In this document: positions 1-34,348 of the stretch, in pieces
How positions within the stretch are numbered: position 1 is the stretch's first letter
Layout: the number at the start of each line of letters is the position of its first letter
Origin: a virus
Taxonomy: Duplodnaviria; Heunggongvirae; Uroviricota; Caudoviricetes
Length of the DNA stretch: 38,936 nucleotides
Reading direction: 5' to 3' (one strand)
Virus record (IMG/VR): IMGVR_UViG_3300029288_007068
Notes under the pieces: model-generated
Database searches by the model: none
The model's input: only the letters and a program-made list of their open reading frames with translations
Told to the model about the DNA's origin: nothing
Translations under genes and position numbers: made by a program

Positions 1-3000
1 AAATAGACTTCATCTTGGAACTCTCTTATAACGTTATCATGGAAAAGACATCTTTCTGCGTTTGCAATATACGCTGGAATTGAAGTTCCTGTGGTAGATG
101 CAACGAATTGGTTTCCAAGAATTGAGATATCGTAAGCAGAACCACTACAATAAACACCATAACAATCCGCGGGTGCGGTTTGTTCATAAAAGACGTTGTT
201 ACTAATAATAACTCTTCTTGTTCCTGTATCTAAATCAATATAGTGACAATCATGATTGTTTGCAGATATCATAGTGTTTCCTGAAATGACAGTCCCATAT
301 ATGGTGGCTTTTAAATCAACACCCTGACAATTTGCGTAGGTTGGATTAAAGAAGTTATTAGAGATAATAGCAAAGTCACCTGTCATCGTAACACCAATAA
401 GACCGCCATAAATGTAATTGCCAGTTACCCGCATGTAATCATCAGAACTTTTGGTTGAATAAATTCCATAACAATTCTGATAGAGAATGTTATCTGATAT
501 AACGACGCGAGAAGAATATCTACAATAAACTCCATAATTAAAACGCATAATGGCACTATCATACATTCCTCTTAAGTAGTTGTTACTAATGATTGTACTA
601 TCTGCACAATACGTTGTATCATATCCCCACATGATAATTGCGTTATGGACTATGATATTGTTTTCTGTTATTGTAGATGCTTTTGCATATCCGTATAACG
701 ACACAAAGTTATGCAACCTATCTGTACAAATGATGTGTTCAACCCGCGCGGTTACATTAGTGAAGTTTGCGAACGTTTGTCTTGAAGCGAACATTCTCCC
801 TTTGATTCTAAACTCCGAAACACCACAAGTCAAACCATAGTACGGCGCAGAAGTATCTTCAAAATGGAATATTGATTTGTTTGTATCTGTGAAGTTAAGA
901 GTTGCACCATCGCTTGTAACAAAGATTTCTTTGTTGGTGAAGTTTACTGTGGCTGTTATGAAGATTTCAGTACCCGGGTCTCTGATGAAAATGGTTCCAC
1001 TACCAACAATCCAATTACTTGCCTTTTGGAGAACGTAAGTGAAGTTGGCATCTGTTGCGATAATGGTTCCATTTCTACCACCACGGGCAGTCCAACTGGC
1101 ATCGGCTTTGTATACAGAAACTGTTATAGGGAGAGCGCTATAGTTTGCACCAAGACCAGTGGAAGCGTTCCATCCAGCCCACCACGATATTGATTTGTTC
1201 ATTTGTGTTGTTGTGAGGTTCCAGTTGTGACCGAAGCCGATAGTTCGATTCCACGACACTCCAAATTGACTTAAAGTCCTGTTGGCTTTGACGACTGTGT
1301 TGTTCCAAGTTGTACCAAAGCCGATGGTTCTGTTGGTCTTGAGAGCGGTATTGTTTGCCTTGAGAGATGTGCCATTCCACTTTGCCATGAAGCTGAGTTT
1401 GCGAATTGACGAATTCCAAGAGGCGCGGTCAGCGTCAGTGATGGAACCTGCGCCATCGGAGGCGCCGGCGGACTGGTTGGCGTATATGTGCGCCCAATTG
1501 TTTGCTGACCTTTTAATCATGAGCAGGTTGTTGGCGGAGTCGAACCAAGCGTAGCCGGGTTGGAAGGTTGATTGGTTTACGATGTCGAAGAAGGTGTTGT
1601 AACCAATGTTGTCTCGAACTATTGAACGTGCACCACTTTGTAGTATAGTAGCAGTACAGGTAATAACGTTGTTGTCTTTTATGATATTATAGTTTCCTGT
1701 TGTACTTTCTCGAATTCCATATCCGCTACAATCAGTAATCATGTTATTGGTAACTGTATTGTTGCAACATTTTGGACTTCCACCAATTTGAATTCCATCT
1801 CCGCCACAACTTTTGATTGTATTTCCTAAAACAGTTGTAAAGTTCCAATTGAAGTTAATACCATCGGATGTACATTTTGAAATTGTATTCCCCGTTATAA
1901 TGTTGTACTTGCCACCATGTAGTATTGGAGTTGCATCTCTTATCGAGTAAATTCCATACCGACCACAACCGCTAATATGGTTTCCACTAATTGTACCGTT
2001 GCTTGCCCAAGTTTGGATACCATCGTAATATCCTGTGATTGTGTTATCTGTAATGGTTGCGTTGTAAAGACCACAAAATATTCCATAGTCTTCATCAGTT
2101 CTCGTACAACTTATGTAATTCCCACTGACAAGAACTCCTATATTCTTTTGTTTATCACTCGCCACAGCTGATGTTAAGTGAATTCCATAAGCAGATGTTT
2201 GATTGATTTTGTTATTTAAAATTGAAACTCCTCTTAAATGAGAAGTAGAAGTAGTCAATCTGATTCCATATCCTGTTGTATCATCGCCATCATTTCCAGT
2301 AACGTTATTGATATAACAATTTGAAAGAGTGAGGTAATCACCATACATCTCTACTCCACAACCGTATATCTCATTCAAGATACAATCACTGATTGTATTA
2401 TTATTCCCACCTAAAATGAAACCTGACCCGGTTCTCGCTGATATGTTACCACACCTCTCCGCAAGACAATTACTAACGGTAACTCGTTCTGTCCCCGCGC
2501 CAAGTACTATCGCCCGTGGTTCATTATTGGTTGTATATACATCTTCCTGTCTTGTCATGTTTCTAAAAATACAATTCGTAACTGTAGCTCTTCCACCATT
2601 TTCAAACCATATTCCACTGAACCCATTGAGATACAAACTATCGGAAATCGTAATCCATTTCGACTTCATTCCATAACTTGGTGAACCGGTAAGCGAAATA
2701 GATTCAAAACAAGTTCCGTGGTTCCAATAGTTCGAAAACAGACAATGTGATATTGTTACATTAGTACATGCTCCACCCCAAATTCCACCGGGTAATATAT
2801 TCTCCGAAACACCAGATGGTAAACCATCTCCCCAACACACTCCCGCTTCAGTTACTTTCACATTTTGAATGAAAACATTGTTACAAGCTCCAATGTATAT
2901 TCCAGCTAATATAGTGTTTTCTATCGTAACTCTCTCTATCGTTAAATTGTGGGTTTGTAATAACTGCATTCCATGTCCCTGGTTCCATCCCCAGTTTGAT

Positions 3001-4679
3001 ATTGAAATGTGGTGGGGTTGATGGTATTGGTTTCCGTTGATGGTAAAATCAGTTAATTTTACATTTGAGTTATTACCTGTTGCAACCGTTGTTCCACCAA
3101 CAATTAAACTTCTGTAGAAGTTAACCAATAAAGTTTTATTTGCTCCATCAGCTAAGTATAAAACGGAAGAATTACCAGCGCCTCGAAGCCATGTATTACT
3201 CGGTACTCTAATCGGAATGGTAATTGATATGTTACATGGCGGTAATTCCACCCATCCCATCAAACCAGAACCGGTGTTGTTTAAATCCCAAATTGCATCT
3301 TGGATACCCACGTTAGATACAGGGAACTTGTAACCACGGCTGTTGGTAATGAAAGTAACATTCGGGGCGAAGTTGCCGCCAGTAGTGGCATTCCATCCAG
3401 CCCACCAAGTGGCGGTTTTGTTCATTTGTGTTGTCGTCAAGTTCCAGTTGTGGCTCCATCCCAAAAATCTGTTATCTCCTGTTGACGCATTCCATAATGC
3501 CCAGAAGGTTTTGGAATTGTTAAAACCACTTGTAGTCTGATTCCATTTGTTACCGAAGTCGGAAGTTCGATTACTTTTAAGAACTGTATTATTCCACTCA
3601 CTTCCAAAGTCGATAGTTCGATTTACTTTGAGATACGTATTATTTGACTGAGTGGTGGTTCTGTTCCAACTATGGCTCCACCCTATAAACCTTAAATCTC
3701 CAGTAGACGCATTCCATGTTGCCCAGAAAGTCTTCGAATTATTAAATCCCGCAGTGGTTTGGTTCCACTTGTTACCAAATCCAATCGTTCTGTTAACTTT
3801 TAAAATTGTATTGTTAAGTTGGAGTGTTGTTCTATTCCAATTGTGACTCCACCCTATGAACCGCAAGTCACCTGTAGAGGCATTCCAAGCGGCCCAAAAC
3901 GTTTTAGAATTATTAAATCCAGACGTTGTTTGATTCCATTTGTTACCGAATCCCTGTGTTCGATTGACCTTGATGACTGTATTATTCCAATTTATTCCAA
4001 ATCCAGCGGTGCGATTTATTCTGAGTGCACTGTTATTTGCCTTTAAAGCTGTTCCATTCCATTTGAGCATAAAACTGAGTTTGCGAAGAGATGTGTTCCA
4101 AAGGTCATCGTAAGCGTTGACATGAGTAACTGAATTGTTCCATTTTGCTCTGTCTTCTTCTGTAATGGAACCAGCGCCATCTGCGCCCGCCGATGCGTTG
4201 ACATTTATGGTTGCCCAATTCCCAGCATTGCGCTTTACTTTAAGGACGTTGTTTGCTGAATCGAACCACATGAAACCGGGTTGAGCGCCAGTGACGTTTA
4301 TGGTTGGAGTGGTAGAATAGTTATAACATTGGAAGTTTACGTTGGTTGGAAGCGACCCATGTTGGAGAAGGGATGCAAACGAAACGCCATAAGGAATGTA
4401 GACAACTCCATAAGTGGCGTTGAGACTCCATGCGGCGTACTTGACGTTGTCCTGAGTGGCGTTATAGATATTGCCATTCGACACGTAAATCTTCGACATC
4501 AGTTCGAAGGTAGAACCATTCTTAAAATCATAGTCTCCATCATACATAATGACGCCGGTTGATGAATCGGTCGTATCGGTTATTATTCTTACGGAGTTAG
4601 CATAAGACGTCAACACCAAAGTGATGACTAAAAAGGCTACTCCGAATTTTATGCGTCTTGCCAATATTTTATCTGACAT
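1..4679 (-). CDS. Giant secreted/membrane-anchored spike or adhesin with two right-handed beta-helix (pectate-lyase-like) domains; 3' truncated by window edge
   Basis: Translated by hand: ATG at 4679 (RBS AGGAGAG) gives MSDKILARRIKFGVAFLVITLVLTSYANS... and stays open for 1559 codons to the window edge with no stop. Beta-helix hallmarks include LRGAGNSSVLYLADGANKTLL, KLTDFTINGN and many I-S-x-N/N-x-I repeats. N-x-S/T sequons are dense. Confidence 0.9.
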   Translation of the reverse strand, partial: MSDKILARRIKFGVAFLVITLVLTSYANSVRIITDTTDSSTGVIMYDGDYDFKNGSTFELMSKIYVSNGNIYNATQDNVKYAAWSLNATYGVVYIPYGVSFASLLQHGSLPTNVNFQCYNYSTTPTINVTGAQPGFMWFDSANNVLKVKRNAGNWATINVNASAGADGAGSITEEDRAKWNNSVTHVNAYDDLWNTSLRKLSFMLKWNGTALKANNSALRINRTAGFGINWNNTVIKVNRTQGFGNKWNQTTSGFNNSKTFWAAWNASTGDLRFIGWSHNWNRTTLQLNNTILKVNRTIGFGNKWNQTTAGFNNSKTFWATWNASTGDLRFIGWSHSWNRTTTQSNNTYLKVNRTIDFGSEWNNTVLKSNRTSDFGNKWNQTTSGFNNSKTFWALWNASTGDNRFLGWSHNWNLTTTQMNKTATWWAGWNATTGGNFAPNVTFITNSRGYKFPVSNVGIQDAIWDLNNTGSGLMGWVELPPCNISITIPIRVPSNTWLRGAGNSSVLYLADGANKTLLVNFYRSLIVGGTTVATGNNSNVKLTDFTINGNQYHQPHHISISNWGWNQGHGMQLLQTHNLTIERVTIENTILAGIYIGACNNVFIQNVKVTEAGVCWGDGLPSGVSENILPGGIWGGACTNVTISHCLFSNYWNHGTCFESISLTGSPSYGMKSKWITISDSLYLNGFSGIWFENGGRATVTNCIFRNMTRQEDVYTTNNEPRAIVLGAGTERVTVSNCLAERCGNISARTGSGFILGGNNNTISDCILNEIYGCGVEMYGDYLTLSNCYINNVTGNDGDDTTGYGIRLTTSTSHLRGVSILNNKINQTSAYGIHLTSAVASDKQKNIGVLVSGNYISCTRTDEDYGIFCGLYNATITDNTITGYYDGIQTWASNGTISGNHISGCGRYGIYSIRDATPILHGGKYNIITGNTISKCTSDGINFNWNFTTVLGNTIKSCGGDGIQIGGSPKCCNNTVTNNMITDCSGYGIRESTTGNYNIIKDNNVITCTATILQSGARSIVRDNIGYNTFFDIVNQSTFQPGYAWFDSANNLLMIKRSANNWAHIYANQSAGASDGAGSITDADRASWNSSIRKLSFMAKWNGTSLKANNTALKTNRTIGFGTTWNNTVVKANRTLSQFGVSWNRTIGFGHNWNLTTTQMNKSISWWAGWNASTGLGANYSALPITVSVYKADASWTARGGRNGTIIATDANFTYVLQKASNWIVGSGTIFIRDPGTEIFITATVNFTNKEIFVTSDGATLNFTDTNKSIFHFEDTSAPYYGLTCGVSEFRIKGRMFASRQTFANFTNVTARVEHIICTDRLHNFVSLYGYAKASTITENNIIVHNAIIMWGYDTTYCADSTIISNNYLRGMYDSAIMRFNYGVYCRYSSRVVISDNILYQNCYGIYSTKSSDDYMRVTGNYIYGGLIGVTMTGDFAIISNNFFNPTYANCQGVDLKATIYGTVISGNTMISANNHDCHYIDLDTGTRRVIISNNVFYEQTAPADCYGVYCSGSAYDISILGNQFVASTTGTSIPAYIANAERCLFHDNVIREFQDEVY

Positions 4680-8990: not shown

Positions 8991-9001
8991 ATATATATAA
9001 G
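8991..9001 (-). promoter_or_regulatory. Archaeal TATA box for small-gene operon
   Basis: CTTATATATAT on the minus strand ~40 nt upstream of ATG 8955. Confidence 0.5.
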
Positions 9002-9029
9002 GTTTTTGTTTACCTTAATAGTTTTACTC

Positions 9030-9548
9030 CTAATAATAATTATTTCTATAATACGAATAGCCTATAATCCCGAATAGGGTTGCAATCGAACCTATGATGA
9101 GACCTATACCAAGAGTGCTAAAAAACGTTTCGTATGGTGCTTCTGAAACATCCGCTGTAGCGGTCACTGTTATATACTCTACTCCAGTAAGCTGTGAAGA
9201 TGGAGAAATGGTAATACTACCATCGTCATCGTCATAAGAATAACGTGAAGAATCCATCGTCCCAGTTGTGCTGTTTGCTGTCCAATACCGAGTAATCGTT
9301 ATAGAACTGAGAATCGGATTTGATGTGTAGTAAACTGTGCCACCAGCAGTCGTATCGAACGTTTCAGTATACGATTTGTATGAAACCGATGTATTATCTA
9401 TTGAAGATATTGCCATCGACACAATTACAAACCCTAAAACGATGAAGAAGACAGCCGTGATGGAAACGAGTATATGCTCTATTAATATTTCTGGGACTGA
9501 CTTCCGCCTTGGTTGATAATAACTATCCTGATATGGTGAATATTCCAT
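9030..9548 (-). CDS. Two-TM protein with Ser/Thr-rich loop; possible divergent minor capsid protein
   Basis: Same helix-loop-helix hydrophobic layout as the adjacent capsid paralogs; sequons NTS, NST. Confidence 0.7.
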   Translation of the reverse strand: MEYSPYQDSYYQPRRKSVPEILIEHILVSITAVFFIVLGFVIVSMAISSIDNTSVSYKSYTETFDTTAGGTVYYTSNPILSSITITRYWTANSTTGTMDSSRYSYDDDDGSITISPSSQLTGVEYITVTATADVSEAPYETFFSTLGIGLIIGSIATLFGIIGYSYYRNNYY

Positions 9549-9579
9549 GATGTATCACTTGCGCTTAGCGCTAAAGAAT

Positions 9580-9599
9580 AAAGGGCTTTGTTGCCCTTT
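9580..9599 (-). terminator. Stem-loop after last capsid paralog
   Basis: AAAGGGC-tttgtt-GCCCTTT, 7-bp stem immediately after the stop at 9602. Confidence 0.5.
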
Positions 9600-9601
9600 T
9601 A

Positions 9602-10165
9602 TTATGTTTTCGGTCTGACGTATGTGTAGATGAGCCCGATGATTGACATGATGGCTGCTATGATGAGGACGACGCCTATGATGTTGAATACTGAAGTTGA
9701 TGTTCCACTGACATTAATGACTGCGGTATAGGTTGAATTTGTTAACGCAGTTGTTACACCAGTTGTGGTTGAATAGACTAATGTATAAGAGCTGTTTGCA
9801 AAATGCGGCCAACTATCGAACCTATACGTTGAATTGCCAGCTATGAACGTCCCATTGACTGCACCAACATCTTGGATGAGAAACGTATGTGGCGTATCAC
9901 CACAAGTCAAACCATATAACAGACACACTGCTGTGTTGTTTATATAGTTTGGTGTTGATATCCATCTCGTGGTTGCGTTAACATCTAAGTGAATGTTAGC
10001 TGTATTGGTAATAGAACCTGAACCGGCTCTATTGGCTGAACCAGCTGGTGTAGAGGTTGGAATGTTGGCGAATACTGTAAATGATGCGAACACACCTATG
10101 CCGAGCACCATTAAACTGAGCACCACACCAAGAATCTGATTCGGGTCGATGAATCTGAGCTTCAT
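9602..10165 (-). CDS. Spindle-virus capsid protein paralog 4 with ~90-aa loop insertion (187 aa)
   Basis: N-terminus MKLRFIDPNQILGVVLSLMVLGIGVFASFTVFANIP and C-terminus NSTYTAVINVSGTSTSVFNIIGVVLIIAAIMSIIGLIYTYVRP match paralogs 1-3. Confidence 0.8.
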   Translation of the reverse strand: MKLRFIDPNQILGVVLSLMVLGIGVFASFTVFANIPTSTPAGSANRAGSGSITNTANIHLDVNATTRWISTPNYINNTAVCLLYGLTCGDTPHTFLIQDVGAVNGTFIAGNSTYRFDSWPHFANSSYTLVYSTTTGVTTALTNSTYTAVINVSGTSTSVFNIIGVVLIIAAIMSIIGLIYTYVRPKT

Positions 10166-10178
10166 TCTGTCATCCTTC

Positions 10179-10469
10179 TTACATTTTTGGGCGTATGTAG
10201 CTGTAGACGAGACCGACGATGCTCATGATAGCCGCTATGATAAGAACAACACCGACTATATTGAAGACTTGATTCCCGGTTGCCGTGACGTTCATAATTG
10301 CATAATATGTTGAATTAGTCAAAGTTGTTCCCGAAGTTGTTCCATTACCAGGAAGCGTAGTTGGAATGTTTGACACTGTCACGAAGAACGCAAAGACACC
10401 GACGGCTAAAATCACTAAGGCAATAACAGCTGACATGATTTGGTCTGGGTCGATAAATTTGAATTTCAT
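10179..10469 (-). CDS. Spindle-virus major capsid protein paralog 3 (96 aa)
   Basis: Two long hydrophobic helices joined by a glycosylatable turn (NGT, NST, NVT) and a basic C-terminus. This is the architecture of SSV1 VP1/His1-type capsid proteins. Confidence 0.8.
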   Translation of the reverse strand: MKFKFIDPDQIMSAVIALVILAVGVFAFFVTVSNIPTTLPGNGTTSGTTLTNSTYYAIMNVTATGNQVFNIVGVVLIIAAIMSIVGLVYSYIRPKM

Positions 10470-10499
10470 TTTTTCTTTCTCCTTTTAAAGAATGTTTAA

Positions 10500-10517
10500 G
10501 GGGCGTTTTTAAGCCCC
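10500..10517 (-). other. Intergenic stem-loop between capsid paralogs 2 and 3
   Basis: GGGGC-gtttttaa-GCCCC. Confidence 0.45.
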
Positions 10518-10529
10518 CAAGTCACCTGC

Positions 10530-10811
10530 TTATGCGCGGGGTCTAATATATGAATAGACTAATCCCACGATTGACATGATTGCCGCGATGATTAATACAA
10601 CACCCACGATGTTGAAAACCTGGTTGCCCGTTGCGGATACATTTATGATGGCATTATAGGTTGCATTCTGAAGTGTAGTTGACGCGTGCGCGGGTACAGT
10701 TGACGGGATGTTACTAACCGTCACAAAGAACGCAAACACTCCAACTGCCAGAATTACCAGGGCGATTACGGCGCTCATGATTGTGTCTGGGTCAATAAAT
10801 TTAAATTTCAT
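10530..10811 (-). CDS. Spindle-virus major capsid protein paralog 2 (93 aa)
   Basis: Nearly identical to paralogs 1 and 3 in protein sequence except in the turn. Confidence 0.8.
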   Translation of the reverse strand: MKFKFIDPDTIMSAVIALVILAVGVFAFFVTVSNIPSTVPAHASTTLQNATYNAIINVSATGNQVFNIVGVVLIIAAIMSIVGLVYSYIRPRA

Positions 10812-10841
10812 GTTTTTATCTCCTATTTCACTTGCCTATAC

Positions 10842-10859
10842 GAGGGACGTTAATCCCTC
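10842..10859 (-). other. Intergenic stem-loop between capsid paralogs 1 and 2
   Basis: GAGGGA-cgttaa-TCCCTC. Confidence 0.45.
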
Positions 10860-10872
10860 AACCTAATGAGCT

Positions 10873-11169
10873 TTACGCTCGTGGTCGAATGTACGAATAC
10901 ACAAGCCCTACGATAGACATGATGGCGGCGATAATTAATACGACACCAACAATGTTAAAGACTTGGTTACCAGTCGCACTCACATTAATTATTGCATTAT
11001 ATGTTGCGTTCTGCAATGCAGTCGTTGCGGCTCCAGCTCCACCAGCTGTTGGTGTAGTTGTTGGGATGTTGGAGACTGTAACGAAGAATGCAAACACACC
11101 CACTGCTAAAATAACTAACGCAATGACGGCTGACATTATCGTGTCCGGGTCGATGAATCTAAATTTCAT
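10873..11169 (-). CDS. Spindle-virus major capsid protein paralog 1 (98 aa; in-frame upstream ATG at 11220 would give 115 aa)
   Basis: GGAGG RBS before ATG 11169 (MKFRFIDPD), aligned with the paralog starts. Confidence 0.8.
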   Translation of the reverse strand: MKFRFIDPDTIMSAVIALVILAVGVFAFFVTVSNIPTTTPTAGGAGAATTALQNATYNAIINVSATGNQVFNIVGVVLIIAAIMSIVGLVYSYIRPRA

Positions 11170-11243
11170 TTTCGTTCCTCCTAACCTGGGTTTCAAACCA
11201 GTTGTCCCACCGGGACTCATAATGTAAACAATGGGGATAACCC

Positions 11244-25729: not shown

Positions 25730-28126
25730 CTAAAGAATACGAGGAATCTTTATGTTTGATTTACTTGGTTTTCTCCAAACAACCACCTTAAATGGTTTGA
25801 ACTTTGAACGTGGTTTACGTTCTGTTTCTTCTGTTGACGCAAGAGTTGGGATTTTAAATGTTCTCTCTGTGTAAAGTTTTCTTGGAGGATATCTGCCCCC
25901 ACCACCAGAGCCGAAAGCATATCCACCACCTTCACCACCGGCGCCAAATGGAAATAGCGGTTTAACATTATAACTACCGTAACCCCTCTGAACTGGTCTA
26001 CCTGTTACTACACCGGCAATAACAGATGGTGTCACAAGTTTTTCAGTTTGTTTTTGTTTCTGTACTCTCTCTTGGAAAACGATTTGGTCATATCTGCTTT
26101 TCACAAGTTGTCGTTGATATAAATCTTGTGTTTCTTTGGGAAGTTGTTTTTCTACTTCTTTTGGTTGTGTTCTTCTTTCATCACCACGCCGAACGTAACG
26201 AATACTGGTTAAGCCTTCGTCAAAACCAGGACTAACATCTCCTTCTTCAATGGGAGTATAGACTGGTTGTGGAGGTATTTCTGAACGATAAGGTTCTTCA
26301 GCTGATTCCGGCTTTTGCTCTAAAACTGTCACCTGACTTGGAACTTCGTAAGAAGGTTGATAATAACCAACTCCTCCTCTACCAACCGCGTATGTACCGG
26401 CGGCTCCAAGAACCGTTGGCAACCTACTGAGCGGAAGAATTGTTTGTGTTTCTGCTGTCACTCCCCCCACTACCTTACCACCAGTTGAAACTAATTTAGT
26501 TATTGTTTTGGGTGCTCTGAGCAGGGTTGCTGATGCTTCTTTGCCGGTTCTCGTTATCTGCCTTGCAATCCACGGAATTCCACCACCCTTCTGGTGCGGA
26601 ATAACTGTTTGATACAACCAATTGACTTTTGGATGCCACAGTGCACGTTCACTCTCAAGTAATGGTTTTATGTATTTTTGTGCCTGTATGTTATACAAAG
26701 AGCCTTTTGTCCCTTTTAACCCAGATTCAACAAAAGTACCACCACCGCGAGCTGTTGCTTTGAAGACATCATAAGTCCTTCTTATCCCACCACGAAGACC
26801 AGTCTTATACATTGTCCTTTCAGCCATAACAGTTGCTTCTTTCGTAGCTGGGCGCATGATGGTAGTTATCTCTGCAGATGGCTTTAGTAACTTTGTTGAT
26901 ATGCGCTTTGGCACAAACTCTCTTATTGCGAAGCCATGCCACTTAGTTGGAACTTGCTTGAATGTCCTACTGATATCTGTCAACGTTGTAGCACCACGTA
27001 CTACTTTACTCGACGCAGAACCAACAAGCTTTTCCGTTCCTTTGGTGGCGGGCACATAACCTTTACTAAAAAGCCTAATATTTTTACCAATAGTTGTTTC
27101 GCCAAATCTTCCTATTTTTGATGTTATTGATGGACCTACTTTCTTTACTACAGCTGGCGCTATTCTGCCATAAGTACCGAGTGCACGGGGAATAACAACT
27201 CTCGCACCAGCAACCGCCGCCTTTGAAGCTGCTTTGATTACTTCTCCACCAACTACGAACTGAGCAACTTCTCCACCAACCCCACCAGCTGTAAACGCTG
27301 GGTGTTCTCCCAAAAATTTAGTTGTTCCTTTCGGAGACCAACCAACAGGCTCAAGAGCAACATCTAACGTACTTGGATAATGAATTCCATATTTTCCTGC
27401 TTCTATTCCTCCAACAATACCTCTAACAGATTCAGTTCTATCAAACGGACTTACTCCTTGAGACATTGCGATTGACGCACCAACATCATATTCTTTACGA
27501 AATCCAAGAACATCAGCAACAGGTGCACCTAAACTTAGTCCACTCGAAACGAGTCCCTGACCAAACTGAGCAACTTCTCTAATAACAGGTGGAAGCTTAC
27601 TTGTCCTTCCAACTTGATACTTCGCCCATTCCAATCTTTTCTCCTCTGGAACTGTAAACTGGTATCCCTGTACTGGCGCGGGTGGACCCATTTGACCGGG
27701 TGGAAGCTCTCCCGCCATTGTTACTTCTTCAATTCCAAGTCCCTCTCTTTCGTATTGCCTTACTTGTCTCTCACTTGCCGCAAGACTACCCAAAGCTTGC
27801 ATTTTCTGTTGTGGTGTTAAATCACTCCTAATTACCGATATTCTCGCTTTGTTTATATCTGTATATACAGTTGAATATGATGGTTTGGAAGGAGCCGGTG
27901 GACCGGTAGTGGGAATCGGAGTTGGCTGAACTCCAGCATCGTAACCAGGACCACTTTTCCAATCCGGTAGTACTGATGGCGAAGGTTGTGGCGGAGCCGG
28001 TTGAACAATCGCACCCTGTTGCTCAAGCTGATGTTGCAACTGGTGAGAGTAAGTTTTCGTTGTTGTCTTCGGAGCCGGTGGCGGGACATAAGGTTTAACA
28101 ACTTTACTAACAATGATTTCGACCAT
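25730..28126 (-). CDS. Hypothetical 798-aa Pro/Gly/Thr-rich basic protein, first gene of structural operon
   Basis: Long ORF; low-complexity termini; central G/A/V-rich amphipathic stretch; no sequon enrichment, unlike neighbours. Confidence 0.85.
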   Translation of the reverse strand: MVEIIVSKVVKPYVPPPAPKTTTKTYSHQLQHQLEQQGAIVQPAPPQPSPSVLPDWKSGPGYDAGVQPTPIPTTGPPAPSKPSYSTVYTDINKARISVIRSDLTPQQKMQALGSLAASERQVRQYEREGLGIEEVTMAGELPPGQMGPPAPVQGYQFTVPEEKRLEWAKYQVGRTSKLPPVIREVAQFGQGLVSSGLSLGAPVADVLGFRKEYDVGASIAMSQGVSPFDRTESVRGIVGGIEAGKYGIHYPSTLDVALEPVGWSPKGTTKFLGEHPAFTAGGVGGEVAQFVVGGEVIKAASKAAVAGARVVIPRALGTYGRIAPAVVKKVGPSITSKIGRFGETTIGKNIRLFSKGYVPATKGTEKLVGSASSKVVRGATTLTDISRTFKQVPTKWHGFAIREFVPKRISTKLLKPSAEITTIMRPATKEATVMAERTMYKTGLRGGIRRTYDVFKATARGGGTFVESGLKGTKGSLYNIQAQKYIKPLLESERALWHPKVNWLYQTVIPHQKGGGIPWIARQITRTGKEASATLLRAPKTITKLVSTGGKVVGGVTAETQTILPLSRLPTVLGAAGTYAVGRGGVGYYQPSYEVPSQVTVLEQKPESAEEPYRSEIPPQPVYTPIEEGDVSPGFDEGLTSIRYVRRGDERRTQPKEVEKQLPKETQDLYQRQLVKSRYDQIVFQERVQKQKQTEKLVTPSVIAGVVTGRPVQRGYGSYNVKPLFPFGAGGEGGGYAFGSGGGGRYPPRKLYTERTFKIPTLASTEETERKPRSKFKPFKVVVWRKPSKSNIKIPRIL

Positions 28127-28689
28127 AATTCACCTCGCGGGAAGATAAACAAAAAAATAGAGTATACAGAATTTTATGTTTGTTTTTGGGTGCATCCAAA
28201 ATATCAACCTTCCCAAATATACTTAATAAGCAGTCCCATATTAATAATTTTAGTTATTTTTCAAACCGGTGGGTAGTTTCAAAAGCATTATATAATATTG
28301 AAATACGCCATAGAATATCGATGGATACAGAATACGGAAAGTTGAAAAGTTTAGCAAGTGTATATGTAAGAAGACTATGAATATACTTCATAACATACCA
28401 ATATTTATATATGGATTTGGATGAACGTCGGTCTTTATTGTAGGAGGTGATTTAATGGAATACGGAATATCGAGATGTTACAAACTTACTAACGTTGTAT
28501 CAATCCAGCGTATTTTGGTGGGGGGTATATATTTTTATTAATTCTTTTTATGATATGACAAAAAGACCATCAATCAAAATTAGAAATGGATTTTTCTGCT
28601 TGCTCCATAATTTCCCAAAAACTATAAATACTTGGTTTCATATAATGAGAATATAATAAATATTATATTTGATTGGATGGAATAGTTAA

Positions 28690-28821
28690 ATGAAGGTAAT
28701 TTTCGTAAACGAAAACACACACATACAAATTCACCAACTTAAAGCATCTCTTCAGGCTAAAAATGTTGACGAAGTCATTCAATATTTACTATTTAGAGAT
28801 AAAAAGGAGAAAGAACGATGA
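28690..28821 (+). CDS. Ribbon-helix-helix-like transcription regulator (43 aa), not in ORF track
   Basis: MKVIFVNENTHIQIHQLKASLQAKNVDEVIQYLLFRDKKEKER*; beta-strand + helix + xxDEVIxxLL helix pattern; ATGA overlap with the ATPase start. Confidence 0.7.
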   Translation: MKVIFVNENTHIQIHQLKASLQAKNVDEVIQYLLFRDKKEKER

Positions 28822-29807
28822 GTGAAATAATCGCAGAACCAACCAAACCCATCCTTCCCTCCAAACAAGAAAATAAAGGGAAAGAAATTTTAGCGCGGGT
28901 TTACCTTCGTGACCCAAACGCCGGTGGCAGCTTTACAAGTATAACGGGTCAACCCGGTTGTGGAAAGACGTCCGTGATGCTTGGATTAACCAAGTATATT
29001 TTAAAACATAATAAAGATGAATTAGTATATTGGAGTTCATCATATGGAAGTCCATTGCAGTTCTTTCCTTTGGGCGCCGGGAATTATCACATATTATGTA
29101 AGCGTGGAATGGACATTAAGTTTTGGGATAGAGTTAATAATTGCTATGTAGATTTACCACATGAAGAGTTTACTGATTTTGAAGAGTTGTATCAAAAATC
29201 GATAAAAGGCAAACTGAATTGTGTTTTCTTTGGCGATAGATTGCTATGGATGGATTTTTTAGAATTTTTAATGAGTAAACATGGATGGCATTCAGTATTC
29301 ATTGATGAGATAAGTGAGATATGTCCAGCATTTACTGCGGGTAAGATATTCAAAAAGATTGGTTGGTTTGCAAACCATGTATTGGGACAAACAAGAAAAT
29401 GTTGGTTAACAGTAGTTACTAATACACAGAGCACTGGAGACACAGACCATCGAATACGTAAAAAATTAAACATACGCATTCTGATGGAAGGCTCTAAAGC
29501 TTCAAAGGATACAAGAGTTTTCCAAAAAGCGATTGATAATTTAAAAGTTGACCATCTTCACGGTTCATATGCTTATGTTACTACAGCTGGAGTATTTGGA
29601 GTAGTAAGATTTACAGATGTATTTACTCCAATACCTAACTTTAGCGTAGAAGCAAGAACAAGTTTTAGGAGTGATATCTTTGGAATCAACAGTCCAGAAC
29701 AAAAGCCAGGAAAGATTGACGCAGGAAGACGTTTTATTGAGCCAGATACGATTGATGAATTTCGTGAATGGAAAAATAAACGGGATTCCCTATCTGACGT
29801 CACCTGA
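28818..29807 (+). CDS. P-loop ATPase of FtsK/HerA-A32 type (putative genome packaging/extrusion ATPase)
   Basis: Walker A GQPGCGKT, Walker B VFIDE, TNTQ sensor, downstream RIR (Arg finger-like). Confidence 0.75.
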   Translation: MSEIIAEPTKPILPSKQENKGKEILARVYLRDPNAGGSFTSITGQPGCGKTSVMLGLTKYILKHNKDELVYWSSSYGSPLQFFPLGAGNYHILCKRGMDIKFWDRVNNCYVDLPHEEFTDFEELYQKSIKGKLNCVFFGDRLLWMDFLEFLMSKHGWHSVFIDEISEICPAFTAGKIFKKIGWFANHVLGQTRKCWLTVVTNTQSTGDTDHRIRKKLNIRILMEGSKASKDTRVFQKAIDNLKVDHLHGSYAYVTTAGVFGVVRFTDVFTPIPNFSVEARTSFRSDIFGINSPEQKPGKIDAGRRFIEPDTIDEFREWKNKRDSLSDVT

Positions 29808-31794: not shown

Positions 31795-32787
31795 TTAAGT
31801 CCACTCGTTATCTGCTGAATCTAAGAAGATTGTAATGTTTTGCTTTGGTTTTGGTTCTTCCTTTAAATCAGCTCCAGCGTAACAAAATTCACTTTCTTTC
31901 TCTTTTACTTTTTTAACTTCTTTTTTCTTTTCTTTAAACTCTGGTTTAGTATTGATGCAATCTAAATGTGCTTTTATGTTATTCGCAAATATGGGGTCAA
32001 GAGGTTTATTTTTATTTCTAAAAAATTCTACATTCCATATTTCATCAAACTTACAAAGCTCTTCCATGAGTCGATAACTTTTTAAATCTACTTGTTCGAT
32101 TGACCTAAAAGCGGTTACCAAAAGTAAATAAGTAAAATCCTCTTTTAACTCCCTCTGTACAAAGAGCTTTAAATTATATGATAAATAATTCATGGGCGAA
32201 ATTTTCTCAATAGGACGCCCTATCAAAAGCCCTTGTAAGGCTGTTCTAACTGAGTTGCTATTATATGCAATCTCATGGATACAATCACATGGAATATTCT
32301 TTTCCTGTAAAATCATTTCAATATCAGAAGTCATAGGTTTTCGAATCTTAACATTTAAACCATTTTTCATAAACTCCTTATCTACATCATCGAGTTTATC
32401 AAAAATATAAATAATGGGATAATTAGAAGTTTTCCATAAGGTATACAATATAGGTCTAATTCTATTCTTTCTGTCTCTGATATCTTGTGCATCATCAAAT
32501 AAAACTATCTTACCACGATTACTATTTATTGATTGGAGATTAATAGACTTCTCCAAATCATTAACATCATCAAAATCGTCAGCTGTAAACCTTAGCAAAT
32601 CAACATCATACGCTTTCGCAAGACATTCCACAAGGAAAGTTTTTCCATTACCACTGGTTCCATGAATGATAGCATATGGTGGACTTCCAGCGCCATTAGT
32701 AAAAAAGTTATCGAGCCACTCATCCAACTGAGCTATCTGCTCTGGAGTCTTTCCATTTCTATTCTTGTAAATACTTGGGAGCGTCAT
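31795..32787 (-). CDS. AAA+ ATPase resembling replication factor C large subunit (clamp loader-like)
   Basis: IIHGTSGNGKTFLVECLAK (Walker A), IVLFDDAQ (Walker B), YPIIYI; acidic/basic C-terminal tail as in RFC-L. Confidence 0.7.
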   Translation of the reverse strand: MTLPSIYKNRNGKTPEQIAQLDEWLDNFFTNGAGSPPYAIIHGTSGNGKTFLVECLAKAYDVDLLRFTADDFDDVNDLEKSINLQSINSNRGKIVLFDDAQDIRDRKNRIRPILYTLWKTSNYPIIYIFDKLDDVDKEFMKNGLNVKIRKPMTSDIEMILQEKNIPCDCIHEIAYNSNSVRTALQGLLIGRPIEKISPMNYLSYNLKLFVQRELKEDFTYLLLVTAFRSIEQVDLKSYRLMEELCKFDEIWNVEFFRNKNKPLDPIFANNIKAHLDCINTKPEFKEKKKEVKKVKEKESEFCYAGADLKEEPKPKQNITIFLDSADNEWT

Positions 32788-32974
32788 CTAATACCCTTTC
32801 TCTTTTTTCTAATTCTTCAATAACCTTTTTAACAATTAAATCCACTTCTTCACTCCTTTTTTTAAGGAAGGTTTTTCCGGCAAAATGAACGCCCAACGTA
32901 ATTCCAATACCAGTAAAAAAAGCATTTACTACTAAAGTTAATCCTATAACTAAATATCCTTGAAAATCTATCAT
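32759..32974 (-). CDS. Small membrane protein (71 aa)
   Basis: One long hydrophobic segment followed by a charged helix; GGAG RBS. Confidence 0.7.
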   Translation of the reverse strand: MIDFQGYLVIGLTLVVNAFFTGIGITLGVHFAGKTFLKKRSEEVDLIVKKVIEELEKRERVLDDAPKYLQE

Positions 32975-33003: not shown

Positions 33004-33347
33004 TAGCGTATTTTAGGTTAAAATATAATAGACTATCCTATAAGATGTTATACTATCCTAAATTATCCAAGGTTGTGAGTAGATTGGATGGTGGTCAGTA
33101 ATTGTTTGCACAACTACGATAACCCCACAGCTGTTTGACCAACTATAAGGCTTTTTATACGAGTTACGTCAGTTTATGCTATATTATGTCATTACAGCAT
33201 ATGCTATGCTATATTGTCCCAAATTATTTGAGAAGATAACATATTATTCGATATCCCCACCACTGTTTGACGAGTAGTGGAGCTGGATATCCTGTATTAT
33301 AACATTCTATAATATTACGTACTATGCTGTGTTGGGTTAGTTTATAG
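33004..33347 (-). ncRNA. Putative guide-like RNA array: three degenerate pentamer tracts with interspersed hairpins (VIPR-like)
   Basis: In-phase 5-nt units at 33004-33068 (13), 33165-33254 (18) and 33288-33347 (12). Plus-strand consensus is YAT-NN. A 23-nt element occurs twice (33117-33139, 33249-33271; 20/23 identical). Hairpins need G-U pairs, which works only on the minus strand. No ORF in the region. Confidence 0.7.
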
Positions 33348-33606
33348 AATGCAAATCCGAATCAAATACTACTTTTACTTCTCCTTGTTTTGTTATCAAC
33401 ACTAACTGGTAATGAATACCAACCTTTACAAGAACATTTCTCATACAGAGTTGATTATCTCCTAAATCTTGACCCTCCAACTTATACTCTACACAATGTA
33501 GTCGACCAGATGGCTCTATTCGCCATCGGTCTGGGTATCCATTCTTTTCCAACTGAATACCCAAACTGGCGAAATACTCATCAGCTATATCTTCACTTTC
33601 GGTCAT
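33337..33606 (-). CDS. Hypothetical protein (89 aa) between Cas7-like gene and repeat array
   Basis: ATGA-coupled to the upstream gene; its stop lies inside the first pentamer tract. Confidence 0.7.
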   Translation of the reverse strand: MTESEDIADEYFASLGIQLEKNGYPDRWRIEPSGRLHCVEYKLEGQDLGDNQLCMRNVLVKVGIHYQLVLITKQGEVKVVFDSDLHSIN

Positions 33607-34262
33607 GTATAACTTGATTTATCAATGATTATCTTTGTCATTCTTCGATTTAGAGTCTTCACCGTTGGTAACAACTGAACTATAGACTTAATCTGTCCTT
33701 CATATATCTCAGGATACTTAATAACTATAGTTGTTTTAATCTCTTTAACCGCATCATAATGCTTTCCTATAAAACCACCTCCAATTCCCTTTAGTGGTTG
33801 AGGGGATGTAGCAAAATAATAATTTCCATTATCACGCCAGTTCTTGTCTTCGCTTAAAATAATATATTCTGGTTCAACGTTAACCATTTGAATCATTCTA
33901 TCAACCGTTGATTTATATGGAAATAACGGGTGTTGAATATCCGCAAGATTTTTACCAATAGCTTTTATGGTTCCTCTAACCTTTCTTCCAAGAGGTAAAA
34001 TAGGTCTACCTTTTTCATCAACTTCAAATGTCGCAACGGGAACATTATCTTTTACCGTAACTATCTTATTCGTAAGTCTAACTGGTGGTTCTATTCCTGG
34101 CATCGTACTTTTAGTAATTGTTTGTTTTTCGGCCTTATTTATGGTTTGATGTTCTATCTCTTGGAACCTCTCAACACCATCTCCACCAAAAACATCTTTA
34201 AGAGTTACATTTAAAGTAACTGTTTTCATAGATATTGTTGGTATATCTTTTTCTTGTGTCAT
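33603..34262 (-). CDS. Divergent Cas7/RAMP-like viral protein (219 aa), candidate RNA-guided effector
   Basis: RRM-like layout: VTLNVTLKDVFGG; long insertion; TFEVDEKGRPILPLGRKVRGTIKAIGKNL; VNVEPEYIIL; beta-hairpin PQPLKGIGGGFIGKHYDAV; KTTIVIKY. This matches, from memory, the motif order of phage Cas7-like proteins. The canonical C-terminal G-rich loop is absent. Confidence 0.6.
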   Translation of the reverse strand: MTQEKDIPTISMKTVTLNVTLKDVFGGDGVERFQEIEHQTINKAEKQTITKSTMPGIEPPVRLTNKIVTVKDNVPVATFEVDEKGRPILPLGRKVRGTIKAIGKNLADIQHPLFPYKSTVDRMIQMVNVEPEYIILSEDKNWRDNGNYYFATSPQPLKGIGGGFIGKHYDAVKEIKTTIVIKYPEIYEGQIKSIVQLLPTVKTLNRRMTKIIIDKSSYT

Positions 34263-34348
34263 ATTATTTCATCTCCATAATACTATATGGTATTGGAGTA
34301 TATAAATTTTTTTATATGTTTAATAGTTACTATACTCTTGGAAGTTAA

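Follow-up and report, generated by a model that had tools for sequence, protein, structure and literature searches.

We report the analysis of a gene on the minus strand (33603-34262) of a 38,936-nucleotide stretch of viral DNA, IMG/VR record IMGVR_UViG_3300029288_007068 (hereafter the window), whose 219-residue product is likely to serve as the RAMP component of an RNA-guided system of the VIPR type in a large uncultivated archaeal virus. We classify the system as a divergent VIPR variant, that is, as a kind known as of 2026 and not as a new class, and it opens no new category. Its combination of features is new: the protein is without the loop rich in glycine (G-loop) of RAMP proteins, the repeat scaffold is a guanine-free A-U-A or C-C-A, the partner gene encodes a VRR-NUC protein and the host is that of an archaeal virus. 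An earlier interpretation made from the DNA letters alone, the sequence-only reading, had suggested a new subtype; the divergence from the characterised type II VIPR is real, but the kind of system had already been described in 2026 preprints.

VIPR loci, according to the preprints, consist of a lone RAMP protein (Vipr), an accessory vap gene and flanking vrRNA guides, and occur mostly in viruses, which employ them against rival genetic elements (bioRxiv 10.64898/2026.04.26.720920, 10.64898/2026.04.26.720927 and 10.64898/2026.10.15.759431). In the guides, 9-16 units, each made up of GGY and two variable bases, precede a structured 3' tail (bioRxiv 10.64898/2026.04.26.720920). The protein forms a filament with one protomer per pentamer, in which the variable bases read double-stranded DNA and one base is skipped per unit (bioRxiv 10.64898/2026.04.26.720927). 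Seven types are distinguished in the preprints, some of them with related repeat motifs and nuclease or helicase Vaps, along with an alternative class named 'NNNGG'; for type II, DNA-binding Vaps are predicted there. Type II is exemplified by Escherichia phage SUSP1 (KT454805.2), with vipr at 28474-29061 and vap1 at 28031-28471, both on the minus strand. A genomic language model survey lists 21 clusters with non-GGY motifs, for example GAC/NN, CAC/NN, WGT/NN and TGH/NN, and uses the UniProt entry X1U2U4 as its reference Vipr (bioRxiv 10.64898/2026.10.21.760802).

The discovery of VIPR is months old and its rules (GGY/NN units, G-loop, silencing) come from one clade. Where the code has room to vary would be revealed by a family with the same architecture but another fixed trinucleotide, RNA-binding loop and accessory protein, and such a family would supply programmable DNA binding with scaffolds that are orthogonal to GGY. 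A 2026 VIPR preprint states that nuclease-bearing VIPRs are the host-domesticated ones, and a nuclease-bearing version in viruses, including an archaeal one, would test this statement. The window provides a compact and testable unit of about 1.3 kb, made up of a promoter, two genes and three guides.

Predicted structure of the 219-residue protein

The AlphaFold2 model of the 219-residue protein (pLDDT 89.3, pTM 0.78) shows a Cas7/Vipr-like RAMP fold with a single RRM. In a Foldseek comparison with the PDB, the top 50 matches were nearly all Csm3, Cmr or type VII Cas7 proteins (E 1e-5 to 3e-4, probability 1.0), the best of them being Csm3 (E 1e-5, probability 1.0). VIA-align, run against 48,161 chains, gave Z values of 9.3-11.2 for Cmr, Csm3, Csf2 and type VII Cas7 proteins over 129-165 aligned residues; individual values were 11.2 for Cmr-beta (6s6b_I), 10.5 (9g9a_D) and 9.7 for Csm3, 9.8 for the type IV protein Csf2 (8rc3_A) and 9.4 for type VII. 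Cluster matches in AFDB were mostly type III RAMPs, BFVD was in agreement, and the ESM Atlas neighbours were viral clusters first and RAMPs next. X1U2U4 ranked sixth in the AFDB fold search, with E 6e-5, probability 1.0 and a TM score of 0.49 by query and 0.59 by hit. This comparison of folds had been set beforehand as the test of the sequence-only reading, which took the gene for a Cas7/RAMP-like protein, and it bears that proposal out. A sliding clamp, guessed from the position of the gene between the family-B DNA polymerase (PolB) and a clamp-loader-like ATPase, is ruled out by the predicted fold; no sliding clamp gene was recognised in the window.

The model runs from strand 1 into a long beta-hairpin (residues 31-77, with its arms at 31-42 and 66-77 and a tip that is basic and flexible) and then helix 1; two core strands come next, and helix 2 leads through a loop to the last strand. 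The motifs on which the earlier interpretation rested, including FEVDEKGRPILPLGRKVRGTIK, VEPEYIIL and TLNRRMTKI (residues 203-211), are all present in the open reading frame (ORF). Between helix 2 and the last strand there is no glycine-rich loop and T-L-N-R-R-M-T-K is found at that position. The order of elements thus places L-N-R-R where RAMP proteins carry the glycine-rich loop, so that the claim of the fold and the claim that the loop has been replaced both stand, and the family consensus at this position (L-N-K-R-R, with N205 invariant and no glycine; alignment A2) agrees with the second. Other invariant or nearly invariant features of alignment A2 are G-G-D-G after strand 1, P-Q-x-L-N-G, F-D-V-I and Y-P; a further motif, P-x-L-R-L-G-G-x-H-G-K-L-W-G, is conserved in the family and shortened in the clade to which the window belongs.

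Sequence libraries return nothing for this protein: there is no match in Pfam (E<=0.1), PHROGs, NCBIfam, PADLOC or the sequences and profiles of the PDB, and none of 35 family members matches the RAMP profiles (Pfam PF03787 and its relatives) at E<=1. Four close relatives were found among 5.8 billion clusters. The family numbers 32 representatives at E<=1e-3 among 1.8 billion, nearly all of about 200 residues, and a profile search gives 47; a 2428-residue match (P0017) was set aside as a spurious hit to a repetitive protein. The family is known from metagenomes only, where its members occur on bacterial-type contigs too; GenBank phage records yielded no member (tblastn with P0001 and P0070) and a search of IMG/VR for related loci yielded nothing.

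Conserved pairing with a VRR-NUC gene

The RAMP gene ends in an ATGA overlap with the start of a second minus-strand gene (33337-33606) and is translationally coupled to it. The 89-residue product is a VRR-NUC protein of the PD-(D/E)xK nuclease group: alignment with eight neighbours of homologs reveals invariant E5, P25-D26, E40-x-K42 and Q52, which is the PD-(D/E)xK pattern. The window's own ORF has no Pfam match at E<=0.1; the VRR_NUC family (PF08774) is recorded on the homolog neighbours in six loci (L001, L007, L008, L011, L012 and L013). The sequence-only reading, which called the RAMP gene stand-alone, was right in that it has no cas partner but overlooked this conserved neighbour. Stand-alone VRR-NUC nucleases of viruses (PF08774) have the same E...PD...ExK...Q catalytic pattern, whereas the gene described here always has a RAMP gene as its partner and pentamer arrays beside it. 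VRR-NUC is not named among the Vaps in the VIPR preprint texts as available, which name HNH, WH and HTH Vaps, nucleases and helicases. Prediction of a complex between the RAMP protein and the VRR-NUC protein gave no verdict either way (score 0.00).

Ten independent loci were examined (L001, L002, L005 and L007-L013), and the three-part module of RAMP gene, adjoining VRR-NUC gene and abutting pentamer arrays is found in every one. The linkage of homologs to pentamer arrays that the sequence-only reading implied is therefore seen in 10 of 10 loci, and in these as in the window the arrays directly abut the RAMP gene, often with two columns invariant over ten units. The nuclease gene is missed or distorted by gene callers at three loci, yet is present in the sequence. 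At L009 (8615-8989) the caller read the VRR-NUC ORF through the array, at L010 (9521-9985) a 154-residue ORF was called over the array, and at L005 (1723-1884) only a 53-residue piece of the nuclease was called; these mis-annotations arise because CCA-NN arrays have no stop codons.

Pentamer arrays and their flanking hairpins

Three tracts with a strict 5-nucleotide period lie downstream of the gene, as the sequence-only reading had stated, all described here on the minus strand. Tract T2 (33288-33347), whose 12 units have the gene-strand form A-Y-A-N-N, overlaps the nuclease gene in its final codons. It is followed by hairpin E1 (33250-33291), whose loop contains GUCAAACAG and which is a candidate 3' tail of a first guide RNA. 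Tract T1 (33160-33229, 14 units) is followed in the same way by hairpin E2 (33108-33160), with the same loop motif, a candidate 3' tail of a second guide. For tract T3 (33004-33068, 13 units) no hairpin tail was found.

The tracts are detected by a phase-aware Y-R scan or a column-information scan only. By the former, an in-phase Y-R step recurs every 5 nucleotides in 14/14 units of T1, 12/12 of T2 and 12/13 of T3, and the best such run elsewhere in the window has seven units. On the plus strand the first position of the unit is T in 31 cases, C in seven and G in one, the second is A (33) or G (6), the third is T (27), G (7), A (4) or C (1), and positions four and five vary; on the gene strand the unit of the window is A-T-A-N-N. 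The corresponding gene-strand motif is A-T-A in L005 also, C-C-A in the GC-rich loci L008-L013, Y-Y-A in L007 and C-A-A or C-A-R in L001 and L002. As a control, the motif caller used on the family returns GGY for SUSP1 and for a second system present on L012. The suggestion that the altered loop of the protein is tied to the altered constant motif holds for the family as a whole, in which LNKRR goes with YA-containing repeats, but not specifically for the ATA of the window. With a single exception, the arrays have the orientation of the gene, which is also so in SUSP1 and in the canonical L012 system.

Folding energies differ between the strands, and the hairpins after T2 and T1 are stable on that of the gene only. 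For E1 the energy is -19.2 kcal/mol (z -3.5) there and -15.8 on the opposite strand, and for E2 the two values are -19.3 kcal/mol (z -5.0) and -2.0 (z +1.3). A related element in L005, in which the loop GUCAAACAG is kept and the stem is different, gives -13.6 against -7.2. This bias results from G-U pairs and points to an RNA read from the gene strand, which we moderately favour as the strand of the predicted guide. Each such guide would then consist of a tract and its 3' tail, in agreement with the published arrangement.

Relation to known VIPR and CRISPR systems

The locus shares with the SUSP1 VIPR a lone small RAMP protein of about 20-25 kDa, a minimal two-gene arrangement in a virus and a position adjoining replication genes. 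Both have arrays of 5-nucleotide units with three fixed and two variable bases, co-oriented with the gene (12-14 units per tract in the window); for the structured element 3' of the tract, two of the three tracts of the window have a candidate. The differences lie in the fixed trinucleotide (ATA, CCA or CAA in place of GGY), the G-loop (G-x-G-D-W-R in SUSP1 and L-N-(K/R)-R here), the region after strand 1 (a beta-hairpin in our model, a helical bundle in SUSP1), the accessory protein (a VRR-NUC nuclease in place of the SUSP1 vap1 product) and the host, which is archaeal in the present case.

The non-canonical arrays of the language model survey (bioRxiv 10.64898/2026.10.21.760802) resemble those of the window in their period of 5, their non-GGY trinucleotide and the fold of the associated protein, which is like that of X1U2U4; the motifs named in its text do not include CCA, TGG, ATA or TAT. 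The Cas7 backbone proteins of type III and IV systems (Csm3, Cmr4 and Csf2) provide the best solved matches and share the RRM-core RAMP fold with its hairpin insertion. They differ in that the locus studied here has no cas genes, CRISPR array, G-rich loop or match to the Pfam RAMPs family, and in that its period is 5 nucleotides and not 6. The statement in the sequence-only reading that neither cas genes nor a CRISPR array is present agrees with our scans: Pfam identified no cas family among the 27 window ORFs scanned, TRF and a direct-repeat scan of the window found only coding repeats of a giant ORF, and no cas genes or CRISPR array are recorded in the ten related loci either.

Promoter and neighbouring genes

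A promoter of its own had been proposed for the gene, with a TATA box near 34300, and an exact copy of a virus-specific motif is found at 34299-34328 on the minus strand, about 37 nucleotides 5' of the ATG. It consists of the box AACTATTAA, a spacer of 14 nucleotides and the TATA box TTATATA (AACTATTAA-N14-TTATATA), and the sequence TTTATATA near 34300 is its 3' end. The motif has two exact copies in the window and none in 100 shuffles. The second copy (8994-9023, minus strand) adjoins the start, at 9030, of a run of small paralogous genes (9030-11220).

All on the minus strand, the genes run in the order serine recombinase, family-B DNA polymerase, dCTP deaminase, the 219-residue ORF and the 89-residue ORF. 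A 360-nucleotide non-coding stretch follows the last of these, then a gene for a 71-residue membrane protein and then one for a clamp-loader-like AAA+ ATPase (31795-32787; PHROG 11838, E 3.5e-13), part of the replication module. A search of sequencing runs for the DNA of the window returned one DNA run, from a landfill metagenome, and no RNA run.

Proposed mechanism and alternative explanations

By analogy with the SUSP1 VIPR structures, the promoter would drive a single transcript that is cut into guide RNAs. Each pentamer would be bound by one protomer, with its fixed trinucleotide (A-U-A in the window, C-C-A in the GC-rich relatives) concealed and its two variable bases presented, and the L-N-(K/R)-R loop would form part of a pocket altered for the non-GGY scaffold. 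Double-stranded DNA would be read by the resulting filament, which would pass over one base at each unit. A filament with one pentamer per subunit, which the sequence-only reading had put forward to explain the period of 5, is the published VIPR mechanism (bioRxiv 10.64898/2026.04.26.720927), and we infer it here, together with expression of the RNA, the choice of targets and the role of the nuclease, from that likeness. The VRR-NUC protein would then act on the bound target, in which case the effect of the variant may go beyond silencing to the cutting of DNA. Rival viruses or related elements would be the likely targets, and a role in interference against competitors is plausible.

A number of observations weigh against the assignment to a VIPR-type system. 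The model matches Cas7 folds at a TM score of only about 0.5, and the solved SUSP1 Vipr (36pp) is not among the fold-search matches listed for it. With hhalign, the A2 family gives a probability of 0.1 against the SUSP1 Vipr and of 0.1 against the canonical Vipr family A4, built from L012, for which the positive control against the SUSP1 Vipr gives 97.5 (E 6e-12). The GGY scaffold and the D-W-R residues of the G-loop are not present in the family, which has no motif equivalent to the GGY-reading residues (H17, D177, W178 and R179 in SUSP1); LxH and G-x-x-D-[WY]-R-P, common to the SUSP1 Vipr and the canonical Vipr of L012, are likewise not found in it. The missing similarity and the missing GGY-reading residues mean that the family is not type II, and since the published Vipr types are themselves very divergent, the hhalign result excludes type II only. 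The arrays do not stand out in a generic Fourier scan (for period 5, z is 1.7 across the region as a whole, and the top 40 windows include none from an array), and the strongest signal of the non-coding region 33004-33347 is a period of 10 (z 5.6), above that of 5, which may reflect alternating unit types or phasing at the level of DNA. The flanking hairpins of distant relatives have no clear strand preference, that of L001 favouring the other strand (-16.6 against -11.5), and one array of L008 is inverted; transcription, processing and strand of the arrays are what we infer from the features above. Nor was a convincing natural target found for the tracts.

Some of these points would be accommodated by a VIPR-like system whose guides come from the strand opposite to the genes, with the trinucleotide U-A-U in the window and U-G-G or U-U-G in the relatives, which we regard as rather unlikely. 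Such trinucleotides are closer to the G-containing published motifs, and the reverse complement of CCA-NN, NN-TGG, fits the 'NNNGG' class; the hairpin of L001, the L008 locus with one array in each orientation and a T5 run after the E2 region on the plus strand are also in keeping with it. The energies of E1, E2 and the L005 element favour the gene strand, however, the arrays are co-oriented with the gene bar the one, and a promoter 5' of the operon would transcribe the gene strand of the arrays. The period of 10 would suit, instead, arrays that function as DNA (as iterons, an origin or a bent region) and are served by a RAMP-fold protein and a VRR-NUC protein acting as replication or recombination factors with no guide RNA; the cassette lies within a replication module (PolB, dCTP deaminase, clamp-loader-like ATPase) and VRR-NUC is a family of replication-repair nucleases. 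We consider this very improbable: the genes around the cassette are unrelated ones in other genomes, the units combine two freely varying positions with three fixed ones in the manner of guide arrays, hairpins whose G-U pairs make them strand-specific imply RNA, and the fold is that of RNA-binding Cas7 and Vipr proteins. Type III Csm3 and Cmr4 being the closest solved folds, a virus-encoded protein with no cas partners might also be a Cas7 mimic, an anti-CRISPR that poisons the type III effector complexes of the host, with the arrays unrelated or serving as decoys. This would leave unexplained why pentamer arrays and a nuclease are strictly linked to the gene in 10 of 10 loci, the protein has no sequence similarity to any Cas7, the family occurs on bacterial-type contigs as well, and we give the idea hardly any credence.

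Searches for targets of the tracts

If the family is a VIPR variant with gene-strand guides, its targets can be sought by matching the N-N code of a tract to DNA with one nucleotide skipped per unit; patterns for database searches were exact over ten units. Within the window, T3 matches 17 of 20 positions of the next gene, that of the 71-residue membrane protein (32759-32974, minus strand; match at 32883-32911). This is the best match over all tracts and skip rules in the window and was reached by 2 of 200 shuffles. The matched codons encode G-I-G-I-T-L-G-V-H-F and the skipped bases fall at wobble positions. We treat the match as a lead and not as a result; it could mean self-regulation or a guide against sibling viruses.

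A bolder proposal, which we think doubtful, would set the family apart from the seven published types as a Vipr lineage of its own, one that lost the G-loop, adopted a guanine-free scaffold (A-U-A, and C-C-A in relatives) and hard-wired a VRR-NUC partner, so that a viral VIPR would cut and not silence; T3 would be aimed at the family of the adjacent membrane-protein gene, with the virus's own copy spared or tuned through two mismatched units.

The exact patterns of T1 and T2 have no match in IMG/VR. That of T3 has one match in IMG/VR and three in metagenomes, which amount to two distinct sequences: one falls within a small ORF for a membrane protein in a marine tailed phage that has SLT and a T4-like portal, and the other within a stretch interrupted by stops in that frame. 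A number of this order is about what chance would give, as estimated from the length of the pattern and an assumed database size, and these matches are therefore not counted as targets. A match of T2 to the PolB gene of L002 (18/24) was reached by 9 of 100 shuffles and is not significant. In a marine phage whose portal is T4-like (L017:2-97 and L020), a 37-residue membrane protein matches the T3 code at 20/20 positions; with the number of hits close to the chance estimate, this is probably a coincidence around the common G-x-G-x-x-x-G helix motif.

Genomic settings of related loci

In L008, L011 and L012 the RAMP and VRR-NUC genes stand together as an island, encoded on the other strand from the genes that flank them. 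The closest relatives of the window's protein (64% identity; L005:345-3153 and L006:341-2890) have the cassette inside a 7-deazaguanine DNA-modification cluster, with GTP cyclohydrolase I directly upstream, the radical-SAM protein QueE nearby and a TGT/DpdA-like gene downstream. On L012 a second, canonical VIPR system (2600-4560) accompanies the family member. It encodes a 191-residue Vipr (3691-4266, minus strand; hhalign 97.5% to the SUSP1 Vipr), which is flanked by arrays of GGC-NN (about 2640-2810, 3520-3680 and 4385-4545); the hairpin of a strong terminator lies at 2636-2602 (minus strand) and a ParB-like gene in between, so that one element carries two VIPR systems with different repeat codes.

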